A stretch of 64,000 nt of DNA from Patescibacteria group bacterium (GTDB lineage: Bacteria > Patescibacteriota > Saccharimonadia > Saccharimonadales > CAYUUR01): NCBI GenBank assembly GCA_052034685.1, contig JBPOIH010000008.1, forward strand, positions 3,502 to 67,501. The letters are read 5' to 3'. The stretch's first letter is position 1. Each line of letters starts with the position of its first letter. This document shows positions 4,652 through 36,896 of this stretch, one piece after another. The notes beneath the pieces were generated by a model. That model worked only from the letters and a program-made list of their open reading frames with translations. It made no database searches and had not been told where the DNA came from. A program made the position numbers and the translations under genes.

Positions 4652-4652
4652 C

Positions 4653-5569: not shown

Positions 5570-5580
5570 CGGAGAAAAAC

Positions 5581-7389: not shown

Positions 7390-7400
7390 AGGTGGGTAGT

Positions 7401-8468: not shown

Positions 8469-8477
8469 TACAACACG

Positions 8478-9704: not shown

Positions 9705-9735
9705 AGCTAACGCTAAAATAAGGATGGGCACCACA

Positions 9736-10260: not shown

Positions 10261-10345
10261 AATATAGTTGCAATTTGTACATACAACAGTTAGTATCCAT
10301 ACATAAGCACTATGCTTTTAGCACAAATAAGGGGGAATTAAAGCA

Positions 10346-10825: not shown

Positions 10826-10844
10826 TAGTCAACGAAGTGCAAAC

Positions 10845-10875
10845 AAAAAACAGCTCGGTAACGGGCTGTTTTTTG
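10845..10875 (+). terminator. Rho-independent terminator after the pilin genes
   Basis: Stem CAGCTCG/CGGGCTG (10851-10868) with a GTAA loop, followed by T6 and preceded by an A-run. Confidence 0.75.
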
Positions 10876-10889
10876 TTATGATAGGGTAA

Positions 10890-11732: not shown

Positions 11733-11791
11733 GCCCGTATAATCCGCTACAAACAGGGTAGAATCAAAGCGCTTATGCTATACTTGAAGCT

Positions 11792-12583: not shown

Positions 12584-13004
12584 GCGTAATCAAGAGGGCG
12601 ACACTATCGTTGAGGTGCTGATTAGTCTCGCGGTGCTGGGCATGATTGTTGCTGGCGCCTACAGTATTGTGAATGCGGCGCTGCGCAATAGTCGTCAGGC
12701 TCAGGAACGATCCGAAGCCATAAAGATTGCCGAGTCACAGGTAGAAACCATTAAAGCCATACCAAACCAAACAGGGCGTTTTTGCTTTAATGGTTCGACC
12801 AAAGTAGCTTTTTCTGAGACGCCGCCAGCCGATTTTCGACAAGATGACTTCACGACATATCCCGAGCAATGTAAGGGGTTCAATAGCTTGTACAATGTTT
12901 TTGTAGACAAGACAGCCGAGACATATACGGTTACCGTGCGTTGGGATAGAATTGGTGGCGGTAAAGAGCAAGCTCAGCTGGTGTACCGGGGGTATCAGGA
13001 ATGA
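12576..13004 (+). CDS. Minor pilin-like protein
   Basis: The internal ATG at 12576 (ATGATTAA overlap with the upstream stop) gives MIKRNQEG-DTIVEVLISLAVLGMIV, a degenerate prepilin motif with Glu+5. Confidence 0.6.
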   Translation: MIKRNQEGDTIVEVLISLAVLGMIVAGAYSIVNAALRNSRQAQERSEAIKIAESQVETIKAIPNQTGRFCFNGSTKVAFSETPPADFRQDDFTTYPEQCKGFNSLYNVFVDKTAETYTVTVRWDRIGGGKEQAQLVYRGYQE

Positions 13005-13693
13005 TTCGTCTAAACAAATCACAAAGCGGCTTTACGATACTTGAGCTCATGATCGCTACGGTAGTCTTCTCAGTATTATTGCTTGGTGCTGCAACCATGT
13101 TAGTGCAGATTGGGCGTTTGTATTACAAGGGCGTGGTAACATCGCGCACCCAAGAGACAGTACGAGGAATCAGTGATGAGGTATCGCGCGCCATTCAATT
13201 CTCAAGTAATAATTTTGAAGTTAGTGGTACCACCTTACCAGTGCAAAACACTGACGGAGACACGGTTACAATCCAAGCCTTTTGTATAGGCAATAATCGC
13301 TATAGCTATATTATTAACGGGCAGGTGAACACTTCTGGAACGTACAGTACATACAAACCAGGGAAGAACCAGCAAAACTGGGTGCCACGTGTATTATGGC
13401 GTGATGCACGTCCAGAGACTTGTGCGCCTCTCGACATAACGCAAACCAACCTTGCCAGTGACGGCAAAGAGATGCTTGGCGAAGGGATGCGTTTGTTTAG
13501 GCTTGACCCTCCAGAAGAGATTGACGCTGACGCCGGGTTGGTTAGCTTCCGTGTAGGTGTGGCATATGGGGCGGACGATGAACTACTTGATTTGGACACC
13601 CCTAACACAGCGACCTGTGTTGGTTCAGGGCTTGGATCACAATGGTGCGCTACCTCAGAGCTGAACACGACGTTATTTAGGAGAATACGATAA
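13001..13693 (+). CDS. Minor pilin-like protein
   Basis: Leader MIRLNKSQSG then FTILELMIATVVF. ATGA overlap with the upstream gene. Confidence 0.75.
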   Translation: MIRLNKSQSGFTILELMIATVVFSVLLLGAATMLVQIGRLYYKGVVTSRTQETVRGISDEVSRAIQFSSNNFEVSGTTLPVQNTDGDTVTIQAFCIGNNRYSYIINGQVNTSGTYSTYKPGKNQQNWVPRVLWRDARPETCAPLDITQTNLASDGKEMLGEGMRLFRLDPPEEIDADAGLVSFRVGVAYGADDELLDLDTPNTATCVGSGLGSQWCATSELNTTLFRRIR

Positions 13694-14844
13694 TGAAGAA
13701 CAAACGCTTACAGTCAAATGAATCTGGCATGGCGGCCATCACTGTCACGTTGATTATCCTTGGTATCGTGACGCTTATCGCCGTTGGCTTTGCCAATCTG
13801 ATGCGCCGTGAGCAGCGCCAGGCATTTGACCAGCAGTTGAGTACACAAGCATTCTATGCGGCCGAGAGTGGCGTAAATATCGCTCGCGATGCAGTTGATG
13901 CAGCTATAGCCAGCAATGATGTGCTTGAGATAAACGATTGCGCAGCAAACAATTCACCGATTGCCAGCGGTGGTGGCGCCATCGGCGTCAATACAAACGT
14001 GAGCGTTAGCTGTCTCCTGATCGATACAACCCCAGACATTTTGTCTAAAAAGCTTGATACGACCGACACATCGTGGGTTACCAAAGTGCAGTCGGCTAAC
14101 GGCCAGCAAATCGATAGGATTGTTATCAGCTGGGGATCAACAGATAACAGTGCGCCATTCGTGACCGATGCAGCATCGATTAACGGCAACTTACTAGTGC
14201 CTAATGGATCTGGCCCTAACAAATGGGGTAATACCACCGGGGTTGTCAGGGCTATGCTTATACCAGACACAACCGATCGTGACGATTTAGTTGCTCAGTC
14301 ATTCCACGCGTTTTTGTACCCGAATGATGCTTCGGTCGTTTCTGGTGTTAACAGTACAGCGTACAATACCGATCGCACTGCACAGGGTAAGTTCTTAAAA
14401 GGCAATTGCGATACAAACGGCGCACCAAACCCTTGTAGCGTCGAGATCACAAATGTGAGCCGTGCGTCGGCTTTTCTGCGCCTTAAGGCCATCTACAATG
14501 GTGTAAATGTCACCGTACAGGCGTTTGCAGCAGGCAGTACTATTCCGCTAGAACTGGCAAATGCCCAAGCCGAGATTGATGCAACAGGCAAGGCTGCAGA
14601 TGTGCTTCGCAGGATAAAAGTAAGCGTGCCGTTGACCACAGGCAGTTCTGTGTATCCTGAGTTTGCGGTTGAAGCCTTTGAATCAATCTGTAAGCGGTTT
14701 AACACCTGGCCCGATGATAGTGAGGTCAGCTTGGTGGCACCAATCAGTGGGAGCACGAGTGGACCATACCAGCTTGATCAGCGTACGATAGAAAGCTGTA
14801 AGCTTGAAGGCTTCTCTGACCTCTCTAACTCACCACCGTACTAG
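13693..14844 (+). CDS. PilX-N-domain-like pilus-associated protein
   Basis: The N-terminus (SGMAAITVTLIILGIVTLIAVGFANLMRREQRQA...AFYAAESG) resembles the PilX N-terminal domain. It is the last gene of the pilin block. Confidence 0.55.
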   Translation: MKNKRLQSNESGMAAITVTLIILGIVTLIAVGFANLMRREQRQAFDQQLSTQAFYAAESGVNIARDAVDAAIASNDVLEINDCAANNSPIASGGGAIGVNTNVSVSCLLIDTTPDILSKKLDTTDTSWVTKVQSANGQQIDRIVISWGSTDNSAPFVTDAASINGNLLVPNGSGPNKWGNTTGVVRAMLIPDTTDRDDLVAQSFHAFLYPNDASVVSGVNSTAYNTDRTAQGKFLKGNCDTNGAPNPCSVEITNVSRASAFLRLKAIYNGVNVTVQAFAAGSTIPLELANAQAEIDATGKAADVLRRIKVSVPLTTGSSVYPEFAVEAFESICKRFNTWPDDSEVSLVAPISGSTSGPYQLDQRTIESCKLEGFSDLSNSPPY

Positions 14845-18276: not shown

Positions 18277-19011
18277 ATGAAGAGGGTATTGGTATATTTG
18301 GGGATAATTGTTGCAGTCGTCAATCTGTCTGTCGGTTTGGTTGCCGCACAAAGCTCTTCAAGTAATTTTCAGATCCAAGAGTCATTTGTTGGCCCGGGTG
18401 GTAGCCTAGAGAGCAATTCCACAAACTACGGTACTGCACCAGGGCAGCAGGCGGTTAATGGGGTGGGTGGCGGCCCGAGCGGTTCAACCAACTATCGTGC
18501 CGATAGTGGTCCGGTGACCACCAATGACCCTTCACTGAGTTGCACGGTCAATACGTCGAGTATTAACTTTGGAGCTTTGTCTACCTCTGTAGCGGCGACT
18601 GCGAACGCTACCTTTAGCGTACTTAATTACACGTCATATGGATATATTGTGCAGATTATTGGCGCGCCCCCAAACACTGGTGCTTATACGTTGGCAGGCA
18701 TGAGTTCGACCGGTCCATCAGTGCCCGGTACGGAGCAATTTGGAATGAATCTGGTCGCGAATACATCACCGACGACCTTCGGTGCAAACCCCGTACAAAC
18801 ACCCGACAGTTCTTTCTCATCCGGTGCAGCAGCGAGCAACTACAACACCGCAAATAACTATCGATACGTTGCAGGCGAAACGATCGCCTCGGCCTCAGCA
18901 AGCTCCGGTCTAACAGAGTACACCATGTCCTACATAATAAACGCTGCGAACACTACGGCTGGCGGATCGTACAGTGGTGCTCAGACGCTCGTTTGTGTTG
19001 GAACGTACTGA
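18277..19011 (+). CDS. Secreted fimbrial-subunit-like protein (244 aa)
   Basis: Signal peptide (LVYLGIIVAVVNLSVGLVAAQ). Ser/Thr/Gly/Ala/Asn-rich. Shares GTEQFGMNL and the C-terminal motif GSYSGAQTLVCVGTY-stop with the next gene. Confidence 0.55.
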   Translation: MKRVLVYLGIIVAVVNLSVGLVAAQSSSSNFQIQESFVGPGGSLESNSTNYGTAPGQQAVNGVGGGPSGSTNYRADSGPVTTNDPSLSCTVNTSSINFGALSTSVAATANATFSVLNYTSYGYIVQIIGAPPNTGAYTLAGMSSTGPSVPGTEQFGMNLVANTSPTTFGANPVQTPDSSFSSGAAASNYNTANNYRYVAGETIASASASSGLTEYTMSYIINAANTTAGGSYSGAQTLVCVGTY

Positions 19012-19072
19012 TTGTTGTTTATGCTTATAATATGTAGTACAATCTAGAAAAGACTTAAGGTAATAATCAAAC

Positions 19073-20149
19073 ATGTCAACACTTACCCCCACCCAGCAAA
19101 AATTGCAACGAATACCATATTTGTTACTAGCAGTGCTGTTGGCCTTTGTTGCTCTCCAGTCAGCGTTTAATGCTCAGGTGTCCGCTGCACAGATTACAGC
19201 ACGCAAAGTTACGCTTTCCAACTCGGCTGGTGCCGGCACCGCTGTTACATATACCTTCAACTTTACCGTACCAACAGCCACAGTCATACAATCAATGCAG
19301 GCACAGATCTGTACAACCGCTTCAGGTGCTTGTTCTACTCCATCCGGTTTCCTTAACAACACCTCCACACTTGTCTCGCAACCGACAAACCTCGGTGATG
19401 CCTCTGGTTGGACGGTGAACACCTCAACGGCCGGCAGCTTGCGTATAGCTAAGAGCGGTAACGTTGCCGCACCAACCGGTGCTCAAACCGTTGTCTTTGG
19501 TAACGTGACTAACCCAACTGCTCAAAACACCACCTTCTTTGCACGTATTAGCACGTTCTCTGACGCTGCCTGGACAACGAGCATTGACACGGGTACTGTT
19601 GCTGCAAGTACTGCCCAAGTAATCAACTTAAGTGCTACTGTCGACGAAACGCTTACGTTCTGCACCGGTACGAGTGGCATTACAACTAGTAGCTGTTCTG
19701 GCGCAACTGGTTCTGCCGTTGCACTCGGCACACTTACTGCAAGTACCACCGGCACTGGCTTGTCGCAGATGGGTGTGGGTACTAATGGTGGTAGTGGGTA
19801 CGCGATTACTGTTAACGGAGCGACCCTTACCTCTGGCGCTAATACGATCACCGCGCTTGCTGCTCAAACAGCGTCAACAACAGGCACTGAACAGTTTGGA
19901 CTTAACTTGAGGGACAACGCCACTCCAAACGTTGGTGCTGACCCTGACGGTGCGGGTTCTGGTACGCCAACTGCCAGCTACAACACAATTGATCAGTTCC
20001 GATTTGTTACGGCTGATAGTGTAGCCAGCAAGGGCACATCAGAGTCATTCCGTCGCTACCAGGTTGCCTACATTGCGAACATTGATACTGCAACAGAGGC
20101 GGGTACTTATACTGCGACCATGACCTATATTGCAACCGCAACATTCTAG
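19073..20149 (+). CDS. Secreted fimbrial-subunit-like protein (358 aa), paralogue of 18277-19011
   Basis: Signal peptide ending AQVSAAQ. Carries GTEQFGLNL, FRFVTADSVAS, and a C-terminus GTYTATMTYIATATF-stop. Confidence 0.55.
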   Translation: MSTLTPTQQKLQRIPYLLLAVLLAFVALQSAFNAQVSAAQITARKVTLSNSAGAGTAVTYTFNFTVPTATVIQSMQAQICTTASGACSTPSGFLNNTSTLVSQPTNLGDASGWTVNTSTAGSLRIAKSGNVAAPTGAQTVVFGNVTNPTAQNTTFFARISTFSDAAWTTSIDTGTVAASTAQVINLSATVDETLTFCTGTSGITTSSCSGATGSAVALGTLTASTTGTGLSQMGVGTNGGSGYAITVNGATLTSGANTITALAAQTASTTGTEQFGLNLRDNATPNVGADPDGAGSGTPTASYNTIDQFRFVTADSVASKGTSESFRRYQVAYIANIDTATEAGTYTATMTYIATATF

Positions 20150-20205
20150 GTATCTGGTATACTAATTAGTAATGAGAGCTTTTTGGAAGAGGGATATCTG
20201 CTGAT

Positions 20206-21183
20206 ATGAAGAGAATGCTGAGTGTACTCGCGAGTGTTTTTGTCTTGTTGCTTACGTTTGTATCGCCTCATGTTGTCCACGCTCAAGGCGGACAAGGCTT
20301 GGAGATTTCGCCTCCTTTGATTGAACTCAAGACCGACCCTGGCAAGACGGTGACCTCGACTATCCGCGTCCGAAATGTTACGCAAGACACACTGGTTATC
20401 AAGTCTCAAGTTAACGACTTTGTTGCCAACGGTGAAGATGGTAAGCCTAAGTTATTGCTAGATACAGACGAAGAGAGTCCGTATTCGATCAAATCATGGA
20501 TTGTGTCTGTTCCAGCTATAACTCTTAAGAAAGGCGAACAGAAGCCGATAAAAGTCACTTTGCGCGTGCCTGATAACGCGAGTCCTGGTGGCCATTTTGG
20601 CGTTATTCGTTTCACTGGTACACCGCCAGAACTAGAAGACACAGGTGTTTCACTTTCGGCAAGTGTTGGAACACTCATGCTCGTTAATGTTTCTGGGAAT
20701 ACTACCGAAAATGCTGAAGTGAGTGAACTATCAACTGCACAGAATGGCAAAAAACGCAGTTTGTTCGAGTACGGGCCTATCACAATAATCGAGCGAATCA
20801 ATAACACGGGCAACGTCTTCTTTAAGCCATCTGGTTCGGTACGGGTAAGTAACATGTTTGGACGGGAAGTAAAAACATACCCACTTAACGAGAATGGCGG
20901 CAATATCCTACCAGGAAGCACGAGAAGATTCGAGCAGGAGCTCAGTAACAAACTACTTTTTGGACGATATTCGGTTCAGGCTGACATTGTCTATGGAGAG
21001 AAGAATTCAATTATTACAGAGTCGACATCATTCTGGGTGATCCCTTACAAGCTCATTCTTATCATTCTGGGAGGGCTACTTGTGGCGATCGTGGCGATCA
21101 AGCGCTATAACAAATTCATCGTGAAAAAAGCACAAGGTAAAAGTGGGCGGAAGCACGATGGCAAAAAAGGCAACCAAGCGTAA
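20206..21183 (+). CDS. Membrane-anchored Ig-like (PapD-like / DUF916-like) surface protein, candidate assembly chaperone
   Basis: Signal peptide, then LEISPPLIELKTDPGKTVTSTIRVRNVTQDTLVIKSQV (a beta-sandwich chaperone-like pattern). C-terminal TM helix plus a Lys/Arg tail. Confidence 0.45.
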   Translation: MKRMLSVLASVFVLLLTFVSPHVVHAQGGQGLEISPPLIELKTDPGKTVTSTIRVRNVTQDTLVIKSQVNDFVANGEDGKPKLLLDTDEESPYSIKSWIVSVPAITLKKGEQKPIKVTLRVPDNASPGGHFGVIRFTGTPPELEDTGVSLSASVGTLMLVNVSGNTTENAEVSELSTAQNGKKRSLFEYGPITIIERINNTGNVFFKPSGSVRVSNMFGREVKTYPLNENGGNILPGSTRRFEQELSNKLLFGRYSVQADIVYGEKNSIITESTSFWVIPYKLILIILGGLLVAIVAIKRYNKFIVKKAQGKSGRKHDGKKGNQA

Positions 21184-22225
21184 TAGTCGCGCTGCAAAGT
21201 CGACAGTCTACCAAAAGCGTCGTCCGGTTCATATCAGTCATCATCGGCACACCGGTAGGCGACTTGCTTTTCACGAAACGTCTTACGCGCTACTTTTTTT
21301 TCTGATTGTGTTCTCTGCGGTGAGTGTGTTTATTATCAGGCATGTTATTGTGAGTGGCCTAACCATAGCTGATTCAGGAGACATTACGGTGAGTGGGGTT
21401 GTACAGGGGACGCCGCCATCGATCCCTGCAACTATTGATATACCCCTAAATAATTCGACGGTAAATAATGCTTTTGTACGCGTCTCGGGTACTTGCGAAC
21501 ATGACTATATCGTAGAAGTGTATCGTAACGCCGTGCTTGCCGGTTCGGTAACTTGTGACACTAATGGCGAATACGAGATCGAGATAAGTCTAGTCCCGGG
21601 CAGTAACACGTTAGTTGTTCGAACGACAGACATATTTGATCAATACGGTCCTGACTCTGGAACGATTACGTTATTTTACGACACGACAATTAGACCAACA
21701 CCTGAACCTGATGTCCCTACTGCGAATAATCCAAATGCGACAATAAACACCTCTAAAGTTTTTGTGAAAAGTAAAAGTTACTTTCGAGTAAGCCAATCAA
21801 CTAAGACAATAGTACTGAGATTTAGGATCAAGGATGGTAAAGCACCATACAAAGTGATGGTGGATTGGGGTGACGGGCAAAGCTCCCAGCAATCTTTCTC
21901 TCGGAGTGGCGATCAGGTCATGAAGCATATATATGCGACTTCCGGTCAGTACGAAGTTAAGATCACCGTGTTGGACGCAAGTGGCAGTAGTGCCTTCTTT
22001 CAAACAGTCGCGGTTGTGGACGGTAAGACTTCTGTAAACCTCTCGGCAACAGGAAATCTAACACAACGTTGCCAGCTCGATGCTATTTGTATCGTTCAGA
22101 ATCAAATAGTTGATGGCATAAATAAAGCCTGGCCGGCGTTTCTCTTAGTTAGTATCATGACAATCAGTTTTTGGATTGGCGAGAAGATTACTATCAACTA
22201 CATACTTAAAGATTCTACTCGTTAA
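21158..22225 (+). CDS. Bitopic/dual-anchored surface protein with a PKD-like domain
   Basis: Basic N-terminus plus a TM helix. PKD-type motif VDWGDGQSS...HIYATSGQYEVKITVLDASG. C-terminal TM helix. The start is ambiguous (21143 or 21158). Confidence 0.6.
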   Translation: MAKKATKRNSRAAKSTVYQKRRPVHISHHRHTGRRLAFHETSYALLFFLIVFSAVSVFIIRHVIVSGLTIADSGDITVSGVVQGTPPSIPATIDIPLNNSTVNNAFVRVSGTCEHDYIVEVYRNAVLAGSVTCDTNGEYEIEISLVPGSNTLVVRTTDIFDQYGPDSGTITLFYDTTIRPTPEPDVPTANNPNATINTSKVFVKSKSYFRVSQSTKTIVLRFRIKDGKAPYKVMVDWGDGQSSQQSFSRSGDQVMKHIYATSGQYEVKITVLDASGSSAFFQTVAVVDGKTSVNLSATGNLTQRCQLDAICIVQNQIVDGINKAWPAFLLVSIMTISFWIGEKITINYILKDSTR

Positions 22226-22374: not shown

Positions 22375-25300
22375 ATGTACAACATACTGCTCAAATATCA
22401 CTGGTGGAAATACAAGAAGGTTCAGCTATGCCTCTTTGTTTTACTGCTTATCTTTGCAGTTTTTTGGTTTCGATTGCACCAAACTCAGACTCTAAACTCC
22501 GCCGGTATTAACGAACAGTTGAACTTTCAGGCTCGATTGCTCGATGATACGGGGGCCGTTGTTCCAGACGGGTTTTATAATTTACGTTTTAAGGTGTATC
22601 AAGATGGAGATGGGTGTGTTGTATCAGGTACGTCACCTTGTAGTGGGACACTCGAGTGGACAGAAACTCGGGTAAGCACGGACAAGGTGCGGGTGAAGAA
22701 CGGCTACTTCTCCGTCTACCTTGGTTCTGTTAATCCTTTTGGTACGGATGTAGATTGGAACCAAGACACCTTATGGCTTTCAATTGACGTTGGCGGAACG
22801 GCAAGCCCATCATGGGATGGGGAAATGCTGCCATTTACCCGATTTAGCGCCACTCCGTACGCGAAGAATGCAAAAAAAGTTGGTGGCCTGTCTAAGGATG
22901 AGCTGTTACAGCTAGGCCAAGGCACTCTGCAGGTTGACTCCGGAGCTAATGATTCGATTGGGGTCAATAAGACTGGCGCCACTGGAGATATTCTTCAGTT
23001 ACAGCGTGCAGGCAGTGACGTTCTAGTGATTGATAATTCAGGAGTTCTCACTTTATCAAGAGACAACCCAGGCTCCGGAAACTCTAGTCGCATAAATATT
23101 TCGGCAAGCACGGGAACAATATATGGACAGATACAGCTGCGCGTGTCAGGTTCAGGATCCGGTGGATCAGGCGGTATGTCTTTCTATGGAAGAAAGACTG
23201 GATCCAACATTGAATTACTCAGGCTTAACTATGATTCAACTACAAGTGATCCATCGGCACTCTTGTTTTCGTCTGATGCCAGCAAGATAGCGTTTGGTAT
23301 TCGTGGTGCAGCCGCCCAAACCGCCAACCTCCAAGAATGGCAGAACAGCTCGGCAACAGTTCTTGCATCAGTCGGGGCAACGGGCAACGTGCTGTTTAAC
23401 CCATCAGCTGTGTCCGCAGATGCGTTTCGTGTGCAAGGTGCTGGAGCAAATGTTCTTCAGGTTGATACCACAGCGCGGGGTGTTAGCGGTGGTAATTTGG
23501 TTAAGGTTGGTAATTCGACAGGTACTGACGCTGATACCACGATCCTACAACTGGACGGTACGACAGCGGACCCGACCAGCAACTTGAGCGCCCTCAACGG
23601 AGGACTGTTCTATAACTCAACCAGTAACAAAGTATCAATTGTAGAAAACGGCGTTGTTAAGGTATTGTGTAACACGACAGACGCCGGTTGTGGCGCGGGT
23701 GGTAGCGGAGCACGGTTGGATCAAGTGACGGCTGCCACGAGTGGGGCAAGCATCAACAATGCTGCAAACAATATTGTTTGGAACTGGCAACTATCGGCTG
23801 CCGAGAGTGGCTTCACCTTTGCGGAGAATGTGGCCTCTACTGGTGGCGGCACACAAGATCAATTTATAACTGATATGGCGACACTGACTGGCTCGACGGC
23901 TTCACCTTTGCGGGTCACGTCCGCCTCAGTTGACGCTGCGGATGTGGTTTTCAACTTAGCGAGTGCTGGCGACATCGAGTTCCAAGACAATGGCACGGCA
24001 TTTATGACACTGAGTGATGCCGGTGCGTATACTTACACCCTTGATGCAACCGATAACCCAGCCTATACGATAACGAACAATGGGTCGGGTAATGTAGTGA
24101 CTAACCTTGCTGGAACGGGTGATCTCATTGTCCAGGACAACGGTACGGCGGTATTTACGATTGCTGATAGTGGCAAGATAGATACGGCCTTTACTAGCAC
24201 CAATACAACAGCGACAGATGATTATAGCCTCAAGGTTACAGTTTCGGATACAGGTATCGTCACGACCGGAACTGACAATACCTACGGGCAACAGCTATCT
24301 GTGTCTAGGAGTGGTGCCACTGGTGGCACGATCAACACCTTCGGTATCGATATAACAGCTAGTTCTGATAATGCCGGTGTTGGTGGCACCGCGACGGTAC
24401 GAGGATTGAATGCTATTGCAGGTGGCAATGCTTTCGGCAGCGCAGACTACATGTACGGTGTTGCTGGTGCTGCTCTTGCGGTCGCAGGTAATGATATTAC
24501 AAAGGCTGTGGGGGTTAGCGGTAGTGTAGGTAGCGTATTCTTTGCGGGAACCATAGTTGACGCGTATGCACTAGAAGGATCTATCAACGTGACAGGTGGC
24601 GGTACCATAACCACAGCCGCAGGCCTGCAGATCAATAGCGCCGCCATCTCCGCCGCCACCATAGCGAACAATTATGGTATTCGGGTTGCCGCTCAGACCG
24701 TAGGCACAACTGACTACGGCGTGGCAATTGAGGCGGCAGACACGCAGACGTTGTGGCTTAGTAGTAATGCGAATAATACGACAGCAAGCGCCGGTATAGC
24801 CTTTGGCTCGTCACGTGACACCAACCTATATCGTAGCGATGTAGCTACGCTCAAGACGGATGGCACTTTCCAGGTTGGCAGCGCCACGAGCCCGGGGCAG
24901 ATTGATCTGTATGGCGATCTTGTCAAAAAGGGCATTTCTAAGCAGACTGGCCTTACGGGCATATCAGATATCTTCATCTACGATACGACTAAGGATTCTG
25001 ATGTCGGCGCCTGGACAAACTCACCAACCTCTCAAGCTTTGAGCTGGTACACAGAGAGTAAGAATGATGGGTATGGTGATGCTTGTAACATCTCCAGTGA
25101 CACGCGTTGCGGCTCGTCGGCCTTCCCAAAGAAAGCGATTATCGTATCTACCACAAGTGCGGTGTATATATTTGATGCCAATGACTATAAAATGTTCATG
25201 AAGTTCGACCAAAATGCTTCAGGCTATGCTCTGGGCGTAGATACAAACAATGATCCTTCCAGTGTATTTGCGCTCAACGGTGTTGTATACGTCGGTGCTA

Positions 25301-28300
25301 ACGGTTCAGCAGCCGGCGGTTTATATGCTATCGACTTCACGAGTGACCGTTTATTTAACTACAATACGACTGATCGAGACCAGGGTAATAAGAATATCGC
25401 TAACCGCAACACGGCTGTGACTTATAACGTTGATAGTCGAACGGCTATGGCGATTCGTCATAACGCTGTAAATGCCGTGCACGGCTCGGTGTTATATGGA
25501 TCAAGCTCAATTGAAACTAACGGTGGTCCGCTCAACGGTGCAACATTTATTGCAGCCGCTACAGATGACTCGATGTCGGTGATCAATCTTTCAGCGCAAC
25601 AAACGCTTGATTATGGCGACAACCTAACAGATCAGTTTAGTTCTGTGTATGTGACAAAGAGGGGTCGTCTCTATGGGCTTAACGTGACCTTATCCCAAGT
25701 AGAGCGATATGGTACACAAGCCAACGGTACGGTTGGTATTGATGTAGCAAAGGCTGACCAGGCAACACCTACGGATGTGTTTGATGAGCAGGCTGCAAAC
25801 CTGCCGCACGTGGCAAACGGTGCGTCTGCACCAACGTTTGCGGTGGGTGCACCAGACGCTTTGAAGGTAATGGAACGCGCATCTATGGCTGATGACGCGG
25901 CAGATCTGATATATGTTGGCCATAGCGCTGGGCTAACAGAAGTTCACGATACTAACACGGCGTCTGGTACTTCTATTGGTTGGTCGAAGAACTACAATAT
26001 TAGCCGCGAGACTGGTTATATGTCAGGGACTCAACGAGGTATGTTTAGTTTTGATAACCTATCTGGAGATCTGACGGATGCAACTATTCGCAACAGTGTA
26101 CTTGAACCAGAAGTCGCGCCTACTTATGGGGTTAATGGTGTTCATGGCACAGGGCTGAGATTCAACGGCACGAGCCAATTCCTCTGTTCAGATGCTAATA
26201 ATGACGGTACTTGCGATACAGACGCTGACTTCAACGTTGCGGCCATCTCATTCCATGTAGAGGCGTGGTTTAAGCACTCTGCGACTGTTACAGGTACTGA
26301 CGTTCTAATTGATAAGCGATACAGTGCGTTTGCTGGTACGGAAGGTATCGGCTACACGGTTGAGATGAACTCAAGTGGTCAAATCGTTTTTGGTATTCAG
26401 GATACCGCTGCAACTGCTGGGTATGATGACTCTGTTACCTCAACTCAGACATATAACGATAACCAATGGCACCATGTCGTGGCTCTCAATACGGATACGG
26501 GTATATGTCTATACCTTGATGGTAAACTAGCCGTTGGCTGTGACACGACGCTTGGAGCAACCGGTACGTTAGATGCTTCACAAATTTTAACGATTGGTGC
26601 GGACGCTAGTGGTGCCGCAGGTGGAAACTTCTGGGATGGAGATATTGATGATGTCTACTTTGCCAGTGGTGGCGCTACTACATCTGATACTCTCAGTCAG
26701 GCACAAATCAGGAAACGATATCTTGAAGGACGCAGCGCGTTGGCTAAACCTTCGACAGTCGTATCGGCTGCGACTACAAGCAGTAGTACTACAATTGGTG
26801 ACTCTGGAGAGTCGTACGTCACTAACGCATTTGTGGGAAGTATGGTTGAGATTACTGGCGGAACAGGCGCTGGTCAGTCAAGACGAGTCATTGCCAACGA
26901 TGGCACGACCCTGACCGTTAGCCCGGCTTGGACGGTAACGCCAAGCACTGATTCAAACTATGAGGTTGTCCCGGAGAAATTGTACGGGGACACCAATACG
27001 GTCACGTCGATCGCACTCAATAACTCGAACTTCTTAGGCACAAACCCTGACTTATACGTTGGAACGAGTAATGGTAGTGATGGTGGGGCAGTCAGCGTCT
27101 TTGGTGGTTATGGAAATTCCTTCATATCAAATCTTTACCACTCAGATGCTGGTGTCACAGACACTACCAGCACAAGTTGGTCGGGTACGGACGCCGATGA
27201 CATTGACGCCTTCTCGGTAGAAAGCGGTGTGGTGGCAATGGGCTCTTCGGCGAATATGTGGTTTGAAAAGTTTGATAGAAATCTCGAGCAAGACGTCGAT
27301 AAGTTCTTCAGTAATGTATCCTCGATTCGAGGCGAGCTGATTGTTGACGGTATGGCAGGTGTGTCTTCAGAAGTTGGTGGCGTTGGTGGTGCTGACCTTG
27401 CCGAGCGCTTTACTTCGTTTGAATCACTAACCGCTGGCGAAATAGTTAGCTCAGAAGACAATAATGTTGGTGCAGTACGGCGAACTAGTCAAGCATATGA
27501 CGATAAGGCGCTTGGAATTGTGGCCACGCAGCCAGGCATCGTCATTGGTCCGCAAGAAGACAATTCATACCCGATTGCTCTCAGTGGTCGCGTTCCGGTT
27601 AAAATCGCACTTAAGCTGAACGAAAAGATAAAATCCGGTGACAGGATCACATCGAGCAGCGTTCCGGGGCATGGTATGAAGGCAGTAGCTGCCGGCCGAG
27701 TTATTGGTGTAGCCCTAGAAGATGTTAACCTAGACACATTGATTGATTGTCCAGAAGGAAGTCCAGATAATCTGCGCTGTACAACTATAACGGTATTTGT
27801 GAATTTGGTTGACTATAACGGCCAAAAAGTAGAGGTCGCTATGGAAGAGTTCCAAGACTCAGGCTTCACGCTACCAGATACGGTACTTGGACCGCTGGTT
27901 AATCTTCAAGAAGGCGTGCTGGACGAGAAACTCAAGAAGTCGGATGATATAATTCGCTATCTTCTGGGTCGCAAGCAGCAGCAAGCCGTCACAGACGAAC
28001 CGCAGTCGGAGATATTGGCCGACCGAGTCAGTGCGCTGGAGGTCAATGGCTTGAGTATCATCGCCAAAGACATTACCGCAGATAGCATCAAAGCTAATAA
28101 GATAGAAGGTCTTGAGTTGCTGGTAGGGAAGATAACCGGAAAGTCCACAAGATCTAGCAGTAGTGATGCTGCAGACGTTACTGCTACTTCTATCGACATG
28201 GATAACTTCATCGTCAAGACAGCGAAGGTCAGTAAGGATCTCACAATCGACGGAGCGTTATTTGCAAATGGAGCATTGGAAGTAGCAGGACCTGTTAAGT

Positions 28301-28665
28301 TCCTTAATACCTCCATCTTCTATAGACTTGCAACGTTCGTTGACTCGGTAATATTCAAGAATGACGTCGAGATCCAGGGGCGTTTGACGCAGAACAATGA
28401 CGCCGCTGGCTTCGCCACTATCTACAAGACACAGAAGAAGGTAGAAGTGAAGTTCGATAAGCCTTATGAGGACACGCCAGTGGTAACCGTTAACATCAAG
28501 AACGGTAAGTTCGCCCAGTTCGCCTATGACGACTTAAGCAAAAAAGGCTTCACGATTGTTCTGCCAGAAGACGCCACTGAGGATATAGAGTTTGCCTGGA
28601 CGGCGGTTAGTGTCAAAGGCGCTAAGACAGTCGAGTTACAACCTTCTACAAGCAAGACAGATTAG
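22375..28665 (+). CDS. Giant surface protein (2096 aa) with a LamG/concanavalin-like lectin domain
   Basis: Uninterrupted 2096-codon ORF with an N-terminal TM anchor. Long Gly/Thr/Ser/Ala/Asn-rich beta-type region. LamG-like block (LRFNGTSQFL...FHVEAWFK...NDNQWHHVVAL...LYLDGKL...WDGDIDDVYF) at about 26090-26670. Confidence 0.75.
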   Translation: MYNILLKYHWWKYKKVQLCLFVLLLIFAVFWFRLHQTQTLNSAGINEQLNFQARLLDDTGAVVPDGFYNLRFKVYQDGDGCVVSGTSPCSGTLEWTETRVSTDKVRVKNGYFSVYLGSVNPFGTDVDWNQDTLWLSIDVGGTASPSWDGEMLPFTRFSATPYAKNAKKVGGLSKDELLQLGQGTLQVDSGANDSIGVNKTGATGDILQLQRAGSDVLVIDNSGVLTLSRDNPGSGNSSRINISASTGTIYGQIQLRVSGSGSGGSGGMSFYGRKTGSNIELLRLNYDSTTSDPSALLFSSDASKIAFGIRGAAAQTANLQEWQNSSATVLASVGATGNVLFNPSAVSADAFRVQGAGANVLQVDTTARGVSGGNLVKVGNSTGTDADTTILQLDGTTADPTSNLSALNGGLFYNSTSNKVSIVENGVVKVLCNTTDAGCGAGGSGARLDQVTAATSGASINNAANNIVWNWQLSAAESGFTFAENVASTGGGTQDQFITDMATLTGSTASPLRVTSASVDAADVVFNLASAGDIEFQDNGTAFMTLSDAGAYTYTLDATDNPAYTITNNGSGNVVTNLAGTGDLIVQDNGTAVFTIADSGKIDTAFTSTNTTATDDYSLKVTVSDTGIVTTGTDNTYGQQLSVSRSGATGGTINTFGIDITASSDNAGVGGTATVRGLNAIAGGNAFGSADYMYGVAGAALAVAGNDITKAVGVSGSVGSVFFAGTIVDAYALEGSINVTGGGTITTAAGLQINSAAISAATIANNYGIRVAAQTVGTTDYGVAIEAADTQTLWLSSNANNTTASAGIAFGSSRDTNLYRSDVATLKTDGTFQVGSATSPGQIDLYGDLVKKGISKQTGLTGISDIFIYDTTKDSDVGAWTNSPTSQALSWYTESKNDGYGDACNISSDTRCGSSAFPKKAIIVSTTSAVYIFDANDYKMFMKFDQNASGYALGVDTNNDPSSVFALNGVVYVGANGSAAGGLYAIDFTSDRLFNYNTTDRDQGNKNIANRNTAVTYNVDSRTAMAIRHNAVNAVHGSVLYGSSSIETNGGPLNGATFIAAATDDSMSVINLSAQQTLDYGDNLTDQFSSVYVTKRGRLYGLNVTLSQVERYGTQANGTVGIDVAKADQATPTDVFDEQAANLPHVANGASAPTFAVGAPDALKVMERASMADDAADLIYVGHSAGLTEVHDTNTASGTSIGWSKNYNISRETGYMSGTQRGMFSFDNLSGDLTDATIRNSVLEPEVAPTYGVNGVHGTGLRFNGTSQFLCSDANNDGTCDTDADFNVAAISFHVEAWFKHSATVTGTDVLIDKRYSAFAGTEGIGYTVEMNSSGQIVFGIQDTAATAGYDDSVTSTQTYNDNQWHHVVALNTDTGICLYLDGKLAVGCDTTLGATGTLDASQILTIGADASGAAGGNFWDGDIDDVYFASGGATTSDTLSQAQIRKRYLEGRSALAKPSTVVSAATTSSSTTIGDSGESYVTNAFVGSMVEITGGTGAGQSRRVIANDGTTLTVSPAWTVTPSTDSNYEVVPEKLYGDTNTVTSIALNNSNFLGTNPDLYVGTSNGSDGGAVSVFGGYGNSFISNLYHSDAGVTDTTSTSWSGTDADDIDAFSVESGVVAMGSSANMWFEKFDRNLEQDVDKFFSNVSSIRGELIVDGMAGVSSEVGGVGGADLAERFTSFESLTAGEIVSSEDNNVGAVRRTSQAYDDKALGIVATQPGIVIGPQEDNSYPIALSGRVPVKIALKLNEKIKSGDRITSSSVPGHGMKAVAAGRVIGVALEDVNLDTLIDCPEGSPDNLRCTTITVFVNLVDYNGQKVEVAMEEFQDSGFTLPDTVLGPLVNLQEGVLDEKLKKSDDIIRYLLGRKQQQAVTDEPQSEILADRVSALEVNGLSIIAKDITADSIKANKIEGLELLVGKITGKSTRSSSSDAADVTATSIDMDNFIVKTAKVSKDLTIDGALFANGALEVAGPVKFLNTSIFYRLATFVDSVIFKNDVEIQGRLTQNNDAAGFATIYKTQKKVEVKFDKPYEDTPVVTVNIKNGKFAQFAYDDLSKKGFTIVLPEDATEDIEFAWTAVSVKGAKTVELQPSTSKTD

Positions 28666-29618
28666 TTAACACTAGTAACGTAGTCATAGGCCATTTTGGA
28701 TATGGCTTTGAAGTGCTGGTTTGTTTGATCGTCATCACTCTGCAGCATTAAACAGATGGCGTATTGGCGGTTAGGTACATAAACTATCCCACAGTCGCTT
28801 TGGGTTTGTTTGCTGAATGAACCGATCTTACGCGCAACTTTTATATTATCAGGGACTCCTGCTCGCAATCGGTCGTTGTCTCCTGATTCAGCTAGGTTGT
28901 TTAGTATTTCTTGTGAGTTATCTCGGTTAAGATGACATGAGAAATACAGGCACGATAAAAACGACGAATAGGCGCGAGAACTAATAAGCACGTAGCTGCC
29001 TGTTCCGGTACTGGCCTCATTTAACTCAACATCGAGGCTCTTGATAGCTAATTCTTCATCTTTCATTATATCCTTGGTGCTAGAGTAGACGACGTATGCT
29101 GCAGTGTTGTCTGATTCTGTTAGTGCGATTTTGGCCGCTTGTCTAAGAGTGATTGTGTCTCCGGGCTTGAGCCGGTTGGTGTTGCCGTAGACACCGTCGC
29201 TACTAACTGCTTCAGCGGTGACTGTAACTTGCTTATCAAGGTCTACTTTGCCTAGCTCTGCCGCCTTGTATAGATCCATAACAATCGGGATTTTCATGAG
29301 TGATGCACCGACCAATTCGTTAGTTTCACCGTCACGGATGTTGGTGCCAGTCGGGAGGTATTCAAAGTAAAAGCTGTGCGGAATACCTGTTTTAGCCAGA
29401 TAATCTTTGATTTTAGTCCGTAGAGGAGAGAAGTTGACGATGGTGTCATTGGGGTTCTCCAGGAATATTCGCTTTGCAAGCAAGGGGTATTTAGCCTGGG
29501 CCTCCGTTGGCATCTCGTTCTTCTTGGAGCAGAAAAGCTGGTAGGCCAAAAATATACTTACAAATAACAGAATAATAGTGGTGATGGCGAATAAGTTACG
29601 TTTCAAATAATTCCTCAT
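28662..29618 (-). CDS. Membrane-anchored class A beta-lactamase-like serine hydrolase
   Basis: N-terminal TM helix. SxxK (SLMK), SDN (ESDNTAA) and a KTG-like motif (RKIGSF), in the correct order and spacing. Confidence 0.65.
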   Translation of the reverse strand: MRNYLKRNLFAITTIILLFVSIFLAYQLFCSKKNEMPTEAQAKYPLLAKRIFLENPNDTIVNFSPLRTKIKDYLAKTGIPHSFYFEYLPTGTNIRDGETNELVGASLMKIPIVMDLYKAAELGKVDLDKQVTVTAEAVSSDGVYGNTNRLKPGDTITLRQAAKIALTESDNTAAYVVYSSTKDIMKDEELAIKSLDVELNEASTGTGSYVLISSRAYSSFLSCLYFSCHLNRDNSQEILNNLAESGDNDRLRAGVPDNIKVARKIGSFSKQTQSDCGIVYVPNRQYAICLMLQSDDDQTNQHFKAISKMAYDYVTSVN

Positions 29619-29724
29619 AGGTCCTCAATGGGTACTTATATTGTATCGAGAGTTTGCGTGGATTAACATAGCCAAATTAAGTTGCGCAAACAGGGGAGAC
29701 CCGATAAACTTAAGCTATAAAACC

Positions 29725-30171
29725 ATGGGGAAAATATCGATCAAAGAAGAGGGTGAGTCAACTGCTTCAGTAGCGTCTAAGCTAAAAGCTCGTATGACTA
29801 TGCGGAACATCAAACGAGGTTTAGCTGTATTTGCTGTATTTGCTGTAGGAGTTTTGGTCTGGCAGTACCTTGATGCACGGGCAGAACTGAAACGCTTCAA
29901 TGATCCGGCCGCAGCAGTTGCTCAAGAATCCGAGGATACCGTGAGTGAAGTCAGTAAGGTGATGGTTTTGCCGGCAGGTGAGCAGCCAATCCCTGCACTC
30001 GTTAAGGACGAAGCCAAGTTCGCCGACAACCCGGTTTTTGAAGGCGTAAAGAACGGTGACAAACTGCTGATTTACCAGGAAAAACGTAAGGTCATCATCT
30101 ACCGGCCATCTACCAAACAGATTGTAAACGTCATTACTATTGCTGCAAACCAAGAAGTGCCAGCGCAGTAA
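29725..30171 (+). CDS. Membrane-anchored hypothetical protein
   Basis: I prefer the ATG at 29725. One TM helix (LAVFAVFAVGVLVWQYL). No recognised motif. Confidence 0.45.
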   Translation: MGKISIKEEGESTASVASKLKARMTMRNIKRGLAVFAVFAVGVLVWQYLDARAELKRFNDPAAAVAQESEDTVSEVSKVMVLPAGEQPIPALVKDEAKFADNPVFEGVKNGDKLLIYQEKRKVIIYRPSTKQIVNVITIAANQEVPAQ

Positions 30172-32053: not shown

Positions 32054-33094
32054 ATGTCTGAAACAATCGCGCAAACACTCGAAACAAAGACAATCCCTAC
32101 CGTCGTCGCATTAATGGAGCGCCTTGGTGCAGCAGAGACATTTGCTACTCCTGAAGCAGCAAAACAGTTTATTGAAGCACACTCCTACGAAGACTTTTCG
32201 TCACTTCTTAATCGTCTCAACGGTCTTCAACGTAACATCCCGACTTCAGGTAGGCATATGGACGGTGGTGGCTTCGTACAACAAACAGGTGCGCTATCCG
32301 GTAGTAGCATTGAACATCAACCTCCGCTCAAAGAGGATCGCGAGCCACTCATGCGACACGCCTACGAAGCCGCTCAGCAAGCCCCGTCACCTGAAGACGC
32401 TGCTCTTATTCTGGGTCTATCCATTAACGCTATCCACCCTTACGAAGATGGAAACGGTAGAACAAGCAGATTTACTTACATGCTTCTTGAACACGGCTAT
32501 AATGGAACCGACGAAGACAATGGTATATACTCTTCTTTGCTAGAAAATACAAGAGGTCGTGAACTTGTCGATCTTGATCCTTCACGTTCTAATCTAGACT
32601 ATTGGTGTGCACTTCTAGCGACAGCAAAAAGCGCCGAAGAGGTTGGCTATAATGGCCCTATCCCTACTTTCATATGGGGTGCGTTTGGCGATGCATTTGC
32701 AGGTGAGTATAGTCCAGCATTTGAAGGTGAGTATAGTCCAGAAAACATTGCTGTCAATGAGACTATTTCGAATGAAAGCAGAAAGAAACTGTATCAATCA
32801 ATTACCGACAAGGCGGAGCTCTCTGCGCTACCTGCAATGCTTCGCCTTATTAAAGATAAGGGGCTCGACCCAAGTGATTTCATTGAGCATTACCCCGCAG
32901 ATCCAGACTTACCCAGAAGTCGTGATCGCACTTTTCTCAAAGGTGATGAACTTATACCCTTGCTTAGTGAAAGGGATATTGACTTCGTCTACGACGAGTC
33001 TTTCAAGGAGCGTCGCAATTATGTCCTCGCACTCACTACCCTACCGGAGAGCATCATGACTCAACTAAAAGACTTTTATCGCCCAAAGCTATGA
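32054..33094 (+). CDS. Fic/DOC family protein (putative AMPylase), cassette gene 3
   Basis: The core motif HPYEDGNGRTSR matches HxFx(D/E)GNGRxxR, with Tyr in place of Phe. A tandem duplication encodes GEYSPAFE-GEYSPEN (32701-32740). Confidence 0.8.
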   Translation: MSETIAQTLETKTIPTVVALMERLGAAETFATPEAAKQFIEAHSYEDFSSLLNRLNGLQRNIPTSGRHMDGGGFVQQTGALSGSSIEHQPPLKEDREPLMRHAYEAAQQAPSPEDAALILGLSINAIHPYEDGNGRTSRFTYMLLEHGYNGTDEDNGIYSSLLENTRGRELVDLDPSRSNLDYWCALLATAKSAEEVGYNGPIPTFIWGAFGDAFAGEYSPAFEGEYSPENIAVNETISNESRKKLYQSITDKAELSALPAMLRLIKDKGLDPSDFIEHYPADPDLPRSRDRTFLKGDELIPLLSERDIDFVYDESFKERRNYVLALTTLPESIMTQLKDFYRPKL

Positions 33095-35372: not shown

Positions 35373-36896
35373 ATGACCAAAAAAGTAAAAACTACAAAAC
35401 GCAAAACCAGAAAAACCCCTGTACGAGTGGGCGGCAAACGACATTTTGCAGATTTTGCAATGTGGCAAAAAATTCTCGTAGTTGTGTTGTTTGCAGGTGT
35501 TGTTTCAGCGGCTTCTATTGCAGTCTATGCTCAGATGAAAGAACGCCAACTGATCGCCAAGGCGTCATCATACAGTAAAGTAGATATTCACAGTAATCCA
35601 AAAAGCAGCGCCGGAGTTACTTTTAGCGCCTGTAAGTTATTGAGTGGCGACAATTACAAGATTACGATCCTGGCTGTTAAATCTCCAAAAGTGTCAAACG
35701 CTGCGGTGGCAATAAAAGTATACAGAAAATCTGGCAGTACACAGAGTTATGCAAGCCAGGTTACTTCGAAGAGTTGGTGGGGTGGTGAGGTCTCGGCACT
35801 GCAACTCGTGACCTCTAAAAGCAAAGGAGATGAGCTGGTGTTTACTGCGGTAAGTAAGTCTGGCACCTCAGCACCGCGCTATAGTACTCAACCGGTGCGG
35901 AAGTCATTCAAATCAACCAGTGCATACGAGGCTGCGCTGCGTGATTTCCAGGCGTCTACAGTAAGCCCAAGTGCTCTAACTGACTGCAACAAGCCAGCGC
36001 CAAACCCAGTGGCAACTTCTACATGCCTGTCTCGTTCAAGTAGTAATAAACTGTCGGTGAGTAGATTGCAAAAAACACGCTATGTTAACGGTACGATTCC
36101 AAAGAATACTGTCATAAACGCCTCACAAGCCTATTGGGACGGTACCGATGCAAGCGGTAATCCAATATCATGGGCTATCACTGTTGATGGCACTGGCCCG
36201 GCTTGCTGGTATGGAGGCAAATTCACTGGCGCTTGGGACGACAAATCACGATCCGTGACCTGGTCTAAGGACTACCATCATGCTGGGGCTGTGACGATCC
36301 GAATGGACAGGTTTCTCGTAGAGGGTCTACGTGCTCATAATCAGGGCGACGGTATACGTATGGAATCTGGCGGTAGCAATTTCCACGTCAAAGACGTCTA
36401 CCTTTCTGATATTCACGATGATTGTGTTGAGAACGATTTTTTGCACACGGGAACGGTCGAGAACTCTTTGTTCGACGGTTGTTACTCGGGTATTAGTGCT
36501 GCAACCTTTGAAGGAATTGACCGTAATGGAGTGAATGATACGTGGACATTCAAAAACAACTTGCTGAGAATGAAACCGTTTAACACAATGTTCAAGCCAG
36601 AAAAGTATGGGGCTTATGGCCATGCAATGCTGTTTAAGGGTTGGTATGAGCCAAATCGTGGGCCGAAGCTGGTCCTAGAGAACAATATCTTCCGGGCTGA
36701 TCAGAAAGCCAACATTGGCGATCTGCAAATCCCTAAGTATGCCGAACTAAAGAGTTGCAAAAACAACACTTTTGTCTGGCTCGGCAAGGGGCCTTTCCCA
36801 TACAATTTACCGAGTTGCTTTAAGATTACCACCGACAAAAAGGTGTGGGACAATGCAGTAGACAAATGGAAAGCCGCCCACCCGGCTGTCAAATAG
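35373..36896 (+). CDS. Membrane-anchored exported protein (507 aa), function unknown, possibly carbohydrate-active
   Basis: Basic N-terminus plus a TM helix. The C-terminal half has beta-helix-like patterns (DDCVENDF...FDGCYSGISA). Lies next to GH15/GT4 genes. Confidence 0.4.
   Translation: MTKKVKTTKRKTRKTPVRVGGKRHFADFAMWQKILVVVLFAGVVSAASIAVYAQMKERQLIAKASSYSKVDIHSNPKSSAGVTFSACKLLSGDNYKITILAVKSPKVSNAAVAIKVYRKSGSTQSYASQVTSKSWWGGEVSALQLVTSKSKGDELVFTAVSKSGTSAPRYSTQPVRKSFKSTSAYEAALRDFQASTVSPSALTDCNKPAPNPVATSTCLSRSSSNKLSVSRLQKTRYVNGTIPKNTVINASQAYWDGTDASGNPISWAITVDGTGPACWYGGKFTGAWDDKSRSVTWSKDYHHAGAVTIRMDRFLVEGLRAHNQGDGIRMESGGSNFHVKDVYLSDIHDDCVENDFLHTGTVENSLFDGCYSGISAATFEGIDRNGVNDTWTFKNNLLRMKPFNTMFKPEKYGAYGHAMLFKGWYEPNRGPKLVLENNIFRADQKANIGDLQIPKYAELKSCKNNTFVWLGKGPFPYNLPSCFKITTDKKVWDNAVDKWKAAHPAVK

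Follow-up and report, generated by a model that had tools for sequence, protein, structure and literature searches.

How the ultrasmall epibionts of the Candidate Phyla Radiation (CPR) choose and hold their host cells is an open question, and the determinant of this specificity has not yet been assigned. A locus in a Saccharimonadales genome (Patescibacteria; GenBank assembly GCA_052034685.1) raises the question of whether a giant protein encoded beside a pilus operon could be such a determinant. The stretch analysed, referred to here as the window, comprises 64,000 nucleotides (nt) of contig JBPOIH010000008.1 (positions 3,502 to 67,501 of the forward strand). The giant gene, which encodes a tail-fibre-like protein of a pam locus (see below), lies at 22375..28665 on the forward strand of the window and is a single, uninterrupted open reading frame (ORF) of 2096 amino acids (aa). 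Read between stops, its frame opens at 22369, and the ATG at 22375 is the sole possible start upstream of the hydrophobic N-terminal segment. The ORF reported by the first-pass annotation, which was made from the sequence letters, is therefore real, and the motifs quoted there were found where it had placed them. An identical protein (P0001) is recorded in NCBI and Logan assemblies.

The chain of reasoning set out below leads us to favour, with slightly more belief than doubt, the view that this protein is an exported, tail-spike-like fibre of the Saccharibacteria surface, a homotrimer assembled from its C-terminal end, docked by a conserved N-terminal module and serving as an exchangeable binding protein. 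To judge from the kinds of domain alone, the fibre is probably trimeric. The role of host-contact adhesin, already suggested in the first-pass annotation, is an inference. The order of the parts is highly probable, an estimate of our own that applies to the domain assignments alone. From the N-terminus, these are a Sec signal or signal-anchor, an N-terminal module (N-module), a variable stalk, a propeller head with an inserted LamG domain, a G2-type domain, a helical segment and an H-type-lectin-like end.

BLAST comparison of the protein with its 120 best database relatives revealed this modularity. A segment of aa ~5-230 is common to most of the giant proteins listed, the middles of which are mutually unrelated, aa ~830-1670 are common to the closer relatives only, and aa 1672-2096 form the extreme C-terminus of many relatives, with 26-48 % identity. 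The long Gly/Thr/Ser/Asn-rich beta region of the first-pass annotation thus stands as a composition (a Gly/Ser/Thr/Asn/Ala fraction of 0.41-0.62 over aa 101-1700) but not as a single uniform region, as these residues span part of the conserved N-module, the stalk and the folded propeller/LamG head. Searches of NCBIfam and PHROG with the whole protein gave no matches, a PDB sequence search with the whole protein gave only noise, and no paralogues were found within the window.

The C-terminal module (aa 1662-2096; 27358-28662, forward strand) was defined from alignment, profile and model, and has three parts. The first opens with the motif GADLAE (aa 1672-1677; 27388..27405). Among 24 diverse copies of the module that were aligned, D1674 and E1677 are invariant and the block is strongly conserved to ~aa 1815. 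When the profile of these copies was compared with the PDB, the top match was 3gqh_A, a C-terminal fragment of gp12, the pre-neck appendage protein of Bacillus phage phi29 (chain residues 1-53, E 0.0085). The aligned stretch starts with the first residue of the chain, DFAEYFES standing opposite DLAERYTS. On this alignment and the match to gp12 residue 1, an autocleavage site is predicted between A1673 and D1674. The second match was to the chaperone domain D4 of tailspike Dpo31 (E 0.019). Four of the 24 members match Pfam Peptidase_G2 (PF11962; best E 8.1e-5), the C-terminus of the query matches the C-terminal end of phrog_6427 (E 5.7e-6), and three members of the module match a tail-fibre PHROG. 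The domain of the Peptidase_G2 or phi29 gp12 autochaperone type is accordingly placed at aa 1674-1820 (27394..27834), from profile, Pfam matches of members, model and PHROG.

An AlphaFold2 model of the C-terminus has predicted local distance difference test (pLDDT) values, by block, of ~84-95 over most of aa 1682-1811 and ~88-97 over aa 1952-2071. In a Foldseek search of BFVD, the first domain matched stretches of ~150 residues in viral models (E 1.2e-10 to 1e-8), two of which are named preneck appendage protein. Next to this domain lies a helical, coiled-coil-like segment (aa 1821-1949; 27835..28221; alignment and model), in which a confident helix of 25 residues (aa 1849-1873) is followed by a conserved stretch (consensus ANQIEGLE, ANKIEGLE in the query) that is poorly predicted in the monomer model. 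The module ends in a terminal beta region (28222..28629), the strands of which (aa 2011-2078) have block pLDDT of ~91-97. H_lectin (PF09458) is matched at E<=1 by 19 of the 24 members (best 2.4e-5), and the query itself scores 13.7-16.2 bits, below the cut-off of 24. The last 70-100 residues match the folds of SLL-2, Helix pomatia agglutinin and discoidin II (Foldseek probability 1.00, E 4e-3 to 5e-2), with target template modelling (TM) scores of 0.48-0.58 for the single-domain H-type lectins matched. These lectins are trimers. These results bear out the C-terminal half of the first-pass annotation, which had quoted the strings ADLAERF... (from nt 27391) and IALSGRVPVK... (to nt 27684; the domain that holds them reaches ~nt 27834), followed by a coiled-coil-like segment and a small terminal beta domain, and had seen a resemblance to phage neck appendages; the gp12, Peptidase_G2, BFVD and PHROG matches all support that resemblance.

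The module is widespread in metagenomes. A profile search run without a word index returned 30,492 cluster representatives at E<=1e-3, 24,452 at E<=1e-10 and 4,483 at E<=1e-30, and in each of the best 150 matches the module is complete and C-terminal, the longest of these proteins reaching 4,899 aa. We found no single Pfam or NCBIfam model that spans its three parts.

The first part can apparently be replaced. Peptidase_S74 (E 1e-10 to 1e-14) was found in five homologues that share the N-module and the terminal region with the query (P0045, P0063, P0066, P0033 and P0088). In each of them it precedes that terminal region and occupies the place of the query's G2-like domain. The S74 domain ends ~20 aa ahead of the shared helical and lectin-like tail in P0045 (S74 at residues 1024-1086, tail from residue 1105) and in P0066; an S74-type giant gene can be seen in locus L005 (8001-12056). 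Because these homologues carry S74 in the place of the G2-like domain, two unrelated self-chaperoning domains of phage fibres are, as judged from their sequences, interchangeable at the same position. Peptidase_S74 domains are found in the K1F endosialidase, T5 pb1, the GA-1 appendage and the eukaryotic MYRF. The query has no S74 domain, and its relation to these proteins is one of function and architectural slot, not of sequence. The K1F endosialidase combines a propeller, an inserted lectin-like barrel and a C-terminal chaperone. The case of MYRF (PMC8326128) demonstrates that chaperone modules of this type can be taken up by cells.

Relatives thus retain the N-module and exchange the stalk, the head and even the type of chaperone. 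The giant ORFs in related loci range from 255 to 3536 aa, and their C-termini consist of the G2-like domain plus tail (~12), the tail only (~10) or other, different sequences. The head also varies, as in P0052, which has a Kelch propeller with CBM_4_9.

The head of the query precedes the C-terminal module. Its first propeller part (aa 846-1242; 24910..26100) contains many invariant Asp, Trp, Tyr, Cys and Arg residues in the alignment. It is followed by a LamG, or concanavalin-like, jelly-roll that lies inside the propeller (aa 1243-1431; 26101..26667), a linker helix (aa 1442-1457) with a small beta domain (aa 1461-1531, motif VEITGGTGAGQSRRV; 26668..26979; model and alignment), and the closing propeller blades (aa 1536-1660) with a helix (aa 1637-1657; 26980..27354; model). 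An AlphaFold2 head model built on 13 sequences (mean pLDDT 71.7, predicted TM score 0.76) shows propeller blades at aa ~920-1225, the jelly-roll at aa 1243-1431, later blades at aa 1543-1633 and a final helix. Laminin_G_3 (PF13385) matches aa 1286-1429 with 56.9 bits against a cut-off of 27.6 (E 3.6e-15), and the LamG family profile matches neurexin and laminin LG domains in the PDB (E 6.6e-5). The motifs NDNQWHHVVAL (nt 26455-26487) and WDGDIDDVYF (nt 26632-26661), on which the first-pass annotation had based a lectin domain at about 26090-26670, fall in this block, and both the domain and its limits held.

Could the head be an enzyme, in the manner of a tailspike depolymerase that cuts polysaccharide of the host surface? 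In Foldseek, its top matches are trypanosomal sialidases and trans-sialidases (E 1e-11 to 1e-9), followed by arabinanases of glycoside hydrolase family 43 (GH43). The propeller has many invariant Asp, Glu, Arg, Tyr and Trp residues, and phage spikes with C-terminal chaperones are often depolymerases, for example the K1F endosialidase (PMC3357383). However, TM scores of 0.23-0.32 and root-mean-square deviations (rmsd) of 13-16 Å mean that domain types are matched, not an active site. The trypanosomal enzymes likewise have a propeller and a ConA-like lectin domain, but theirs is appended whereas the LamG domain is inserted within the propeller of the giant protein, and the superposition is poor. 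The giant protein has no match to any Pfam sialidase, BNR or glycoside hydrolase family, and no canonical Asp-box (SxDxGxxW) repeats were seen in its sequence. With these signatures missing and only a low-TM fold match, membership of the sialidases (GH33 type) was rejected. We read the modelled resemblance as one of domain types, with no evidence of sialidase activity. A depolymerase, which would be compatible with the fibre proposed here, is improbable.

The other end of the protein is the constant one. Its sole hydrophobic segment (aa 12-37 at Kyte-Doolittle above 1.6; placed at about aa 14-36, 22414..22482) is either a Sec signal peptide or an uncleaved signal-anchor. Immediately after it begins the N-module (aa 42-230, ~190 aa; 22498..23064), which starts with GINEQLNFQARLL and which we consider the signature of the family and propose as its docking module. 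It is the best-conserved part, ~45-64 % identical in most of the giant proteins listed (lowest ~31 %), and everything distal to it is exchanged among relatives. A/V-x-A, typical of signal peptidase I sites, immediately precedes the N-module in 62 of 88 homologues, so secretion with removal of the signal is probable for the family overall. At this place LNSA, YNST or VNSA is found in the query and its closest relatives, for which a permanent signal-anchor is possible. The N-terminal transmembrane anchor of the first-pass annotation is therefore confirmed as a hydrophobic segment, which may anchor the protein or be a cleaved signal peptide. Searches for relatives of the N-module in Pfam (with family members), in NCBIfam and in the PDB (with a profile) found none.

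When one genome per species was scanned, 281 stretches were found to encode the N-module; nearly all of the best 80 are from Saccharibacteria or Saccharimonadales. Short contigs with a Saccharibacteria-type N-module are also filed under metagenome-assembled genomes of Magnetospirillaceae, Acidoferrum, Gammaproteobacteria and Dongiaceae (L021, L022, L033 and L059); these are probably binning errors.

Between the N-module and the head lies the Gly/Ser/Thr/Asn/Ala-rich stalk (aa 231-845; 23065..24909), which was recognised from BLAST and composition. The stalk is less conserved than any other part (in distant relatives, 24-27 % identity and 38-56 % coverage), is of low complexity and has short recurring motifs, and pieces of it reappear as cassettes in other giant proteins, often several times. 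No significant tandem DNA repeats or internal protein repeats were found in it. In three relatives with 73-83 % nucleotide identity, there is a single break in synteny, at 23036..23485, directly after the N-module. At this insertion/deletion hot spot, which corresponds to L087 6516-11285, L088 5787-7273 and L001 10659-13147, the amounts of extra sequence are, in order of size, ~1.1, 2.2 and 4.3 kb; this accounts for the lengths of the longer relatives (2451, 2829 and 3515 aa). The Pfam domains Lipase_GDSL_2 and CBM_4_9, which were seen in longer proteins only, may sit in stalk cassettes at the hot spot. P0002 and P0003 had the appearance of mosaics in BLASTP (92 % identity C-terminally, 44-59 % N-terminally); this is an effect of aligning across an insertion/deletion at a single site, and a recombinant N-module was rejected.

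What the N-module might dock to is suggested by the genes upstream, all on the forward strand. A pamT gene, for the tip pilin of the Pam pilus (18277..19011; NCBIfam NF058579, 279.6 bits, cut-off 240), is followed by a Pam pilin gene of the PamA/B/E type (19073..20149; NF058581, C-domain 170 bits, cut-off 55), a candidate gene for a PamC/PamD-like chaperone (20206..21183) and a gene for a PamR-like protein with Ig-like domains and membrane helices (21143..22225; NF058578, E 1.7e-61, 207.7 bits, below the cut-off of 300), which adjoins the giant gene. The product of 20206-21183 has a signal peptide, an Ig-like domain (a borderline match to Pfam WxLIP_PGBD, 28.8 bits against a cut-off of 27.3) and a C-terminal membrane helix. 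It matches no Pam model, and fits the PapD/FimC-like chaperones PamC and PamD by architecture and position only. The four genes are assigned to the CPR Pam pilus operon, of which the giant gene is the last. A WxL/Csc locus of the Firmicutes type was dropped in favour of this assignment, as the WxLIP_PGBD match is only borderline and none of 23 pilin-family members matches a WxL domain. Searches of the PDB with profiles of the Pam pilin and the chaperone-like protein, and of Pfam with pilin-family members, gave nothing useful, and a scan for promoters and terminators around the operon gave results not above chance.

Pam pili of Ca. Mycosynbacter amalyticus have been solved (Troman et al., bioRxiv 2026, 10.64898/2026.03.03.709456). 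The model in that preprint has assembly by donor-strand exchange, PamT at the tip and PamR as membrane tether. According to one of its sentences, the operon is consistently accompanied by a co-located tail fibre-like protein, which is not described there. We examined 62 related loci from species-representative genomes, each with at least 5 kb of upstream sequence. In 58 of them the gene immediately before the giant gene encodes a PamR homologue, mostly ~1.1 kb upstream; a chaperone-like gene is ~2.1 kb upstream in 49, and two to four PamT or pilin-family genes per locus are further upstream in 48. Gene order is identical in L001, L002, L004, L005 and L006 despite their differing giant proteins. 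The order pamT-pilin-chaperone-like-pamR-like-giant is thus maintained across Saccharibacteria, and the functional link to upstream fimbria-like genes that the first-pass annotation thought probable is strongly supported. The operon of the query (18277-22225) is minimal, with PamT, one full pilin, one chaperone-like gene and PamR.

The mechanism that we propose is modelled on phage spikes with such modules (reviewed in PMC3357383) and on general background knowledge. After Sec export, the C-terminal modules of three chains would associate, the coiled coil and the H-type-lectin-like trimer setting the register, and the G2-like domain would then guide the homotrimer to fold in the C- to N-terminal direction, as phage spikes do. 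The C-terminal module would afterwards probably be freed through self-cleavage between Ala1673 and Asp1674. Retention of the fibre would fall to the N-module, bound to a conserved partner of which the simplest candidates are the co-encoded Pam proteins and the Pam pilus; in the clade of the query, the fibre may instead be retained by an uncleaved signal-anchor. A glycan on the surface of the host bacterium would be bound by the propeller/LamG head, and swapping of stalk and head cassettes would alter reach and specificity. In this scheme, the C-terminal module is most likely an assembly device, possibly cut off, that need not belong to the working adhesin, and the H-type-lectin-like domain may act only as a trimerisation nucleus.

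Phi29 gp12 (Peptidase_G2, PDB 3gqh and 3gqk) is the closest parallel. It too has a C-terminal domain of the autochaperone type that opens with D-[FLY]-A-E-x-[FY], C-terminal to a body that recognises carbohydrate. However, gp12 is part of a virion and the giant protein is cellular and Sec-exported, and ~270 more conserved residues follow the G2-like domain of the latter. Whereas gp12 has a single beta-helix as its body, the giant protein has a long stalk carrying a propeller/LamG head.

Several observations weigh against the proposed fibre and its mechanism. The profile match to 3gqh_A is marginal (E 0.0085), and the query itself has no Pfam match to Peptidase_G2 at E<=1. In Foldseek searches of the PDB, gp12 is absent from the top 50, and phage capsid proteins, several of them described in the literature as cement or decoration proteins, lead for the G2-like region; for this reason the fold evidence from the model, although good, is not unanimous. 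Many N-module proteins bear other C-termini. The 423-aa module past the putative cut is strongly conserved, so that it may be retained and have a function. The module might then be kept in the mature protein, with the G2-like domain as a structural knob, the H-type-lectin-like trimer as a sugar-binding tip and LamG as a second lectin. That the 270 aa past the G2-like domain are conserved across thousands of proteins, and that the end domain has the fold of true lectins, would suit such an arrangement. So would the self-cleavage of gp12 involving bound ATP, which an exported protein would not have. The P22 spike is among the phage spikes that do retain their C-terminal domain (PMC3357383). Release of the module is indicated by the invariant D-x-x-E, which lies exactly at the start of the cleaved gp12 fragment, and by the replacement of the G2-like domain, ahead of the same tail, by S74, which is known for self-cleavage. 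We regard a retained module as unlikely, although far from negligible, and continue to favour an assembly device.

Docking to the pilus is open to a comparable challenge. Attachment of the giant protein to the pilus is deduced from gene order alone, no canonical signal-peptidase site is seen in the clade of the query, and hhalign found no similarity of the N-module to the profiles of the Pam pilin (probability 35.6 %, in the signal-peptide region only), PamR (2.4 %) or the chaperone-like protein (1.9 %). Nor is the giant protein a Pam pilin-type subunit; it has no NCBIfam match, no pilin-like domain was detected, and it does not appear in the published assembly model. A separate surface fibre, merely co-transcribed with the Pam genes and held by its signal-anchor or the cell wall, would account for this, as the clade could have a membrane anchor, homology between the N-module and Pam proteins is undetectable and the pilus model of the preprint is complete without the giant protein. 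Set against it are the A/V-x-A found before the N-module in 62 of 88 family members, which once cleaved would need another means of retention, the conservation of the N-module above all other parts while distal parts are swapped, and the place of the giant gene immediately after pamR in 58 of 62 loci. We therefore doubt that the fibre stands apart from the pilus, and prefer docking through the N-module.

The fimbrial tip adhesins FimH and PapG of chaperone-usher systems offer a parallel for such docking, in that a lectin-bearing protein encoded in the operon of a donor-strand-exchange pilus could confer specificity. The giant protein differs from them in being ~7x larger, probably trimeric and without a detected pilin-like domain. 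FimH and PapG have the lectin domain N-terminal and the pilin domain C-terminal, the reverse of the order in the giant protein.

The phage-like C-terminal module and a tyrosine recombinase gene 6.5 kb upstream of the giant gene might point instead to a prophage or tailocin tail fibre located in the chromosome. However, the protein has an N-terminal Sec signal and, as a whole, no PHROG match, there are no phage structural genes nearby, and pam genes adjoin the locus in at least 58 of the 62 species-representative loci. Moreover, the recombinase gene, like those for NDK and PpiC, belongs to conserved chromosomal surroundings that persist in a genome without the cluster. In Southlakia epibionticum ML1 (SEML1_0104-0125; PMC10633639, Table S1), the flanks are in the same order, with type IV pilus genes, recombinase, NDK, a PH-domain protein and PpiC. 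A prophage origin, rejected on this gene context, is extremely improbable. A further point against the general importance of the fibre comes from the same comparison, as the pam and fibre cluster is missing at the matching site in S. epibionticum, a cultivated species, where tRNA genes and a GT2 gene are found; none of the relevant Pfam accessions is present in the annotation tables examined. For these reasons, the pam/fibre locus is accessory within the group, and its absence from the matching site in this cultivated epibiont means that an epibiotic lifestyle does not in general require it.

Other genes of the window were also noted. Directly upstream of the pam operon is a complete type IV pilus gene set (2949-14844), with PilM, PilB-type and PilT-type ATPases, PilC, several prepilins, a prepilin peptidase and a PilX-like protein, so that two filament systems adjoin. 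Convergent with the giant gene, and overlapping its coding end by 4 nt, is a class A beta-lactamase-like or penicillin-binding-type gene (28662-29618, reverse strand). Its product scores 68.5 bits against a cut-off of 200 and is not a curated beta-lactamase, and such a gene occupies this position in three of the 62 loci. The small membrane protein gene that follows (29641-30171) has homologues just downstream of the giant gene in 14 of the 62 loci and is the commoner of the two. Elsewhere are a Fic-domain gene (32054-33094), three ORFs without a Pfam match (13-2817, 934 aa; 35373-36896, 507 aa; and 39330-40922, 530 aa) and a 1060-aa ORF (60569-63751) with weak matches to DUF87/HerA-type ATPases below the Pfam cut-offs and no domain that passes alone.

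The LamG domain, the G2-type autochaperone, the H-type lectin fold and the Pam operon are of known kinds, and co-location with pam has been noted once before. In the literature searched, there is no description of the architecture, the N-module, the interchange of G2 and S74, the insertion/deletion hot spot or the position directly after pamR. No account of this protein turned up in a literature search on giant surface proteins of Saccharibacteria, and none of the papers retrieved by joining Patescibacteria with tail fibre and chaperone terms mentions Patescibacteria.

A more far-reaching version of the proposal can be offered only tentatively, and is rather unlikely to hold in full. The giant protein would be a domesticated phage receptor-binding protein that acts as the exchangeable host-recognition element of the Pam pilus; exported by Sec and trimerised outside the cell by a G2 or S74 chaperone without ATP, it would dock via the N-module to PamR, PamT or the pilus, and would be diversified by cassettes and set the choice of host.

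The filaments known for CPR epibionts are type IV pili and, since 2026, Pam pili, and the giant protein is a good candidate for the host-recognition part. It has the hallmarks of a specificity determinant, namely a constant docking end, lectin and propeller heads that vary from one species to another, and an insertion/deletion hot spot by which close relatives come to differ in length. The family also shows that cells make large-scale use of self-chaperoning modules of the phage type, both G2 and S74.

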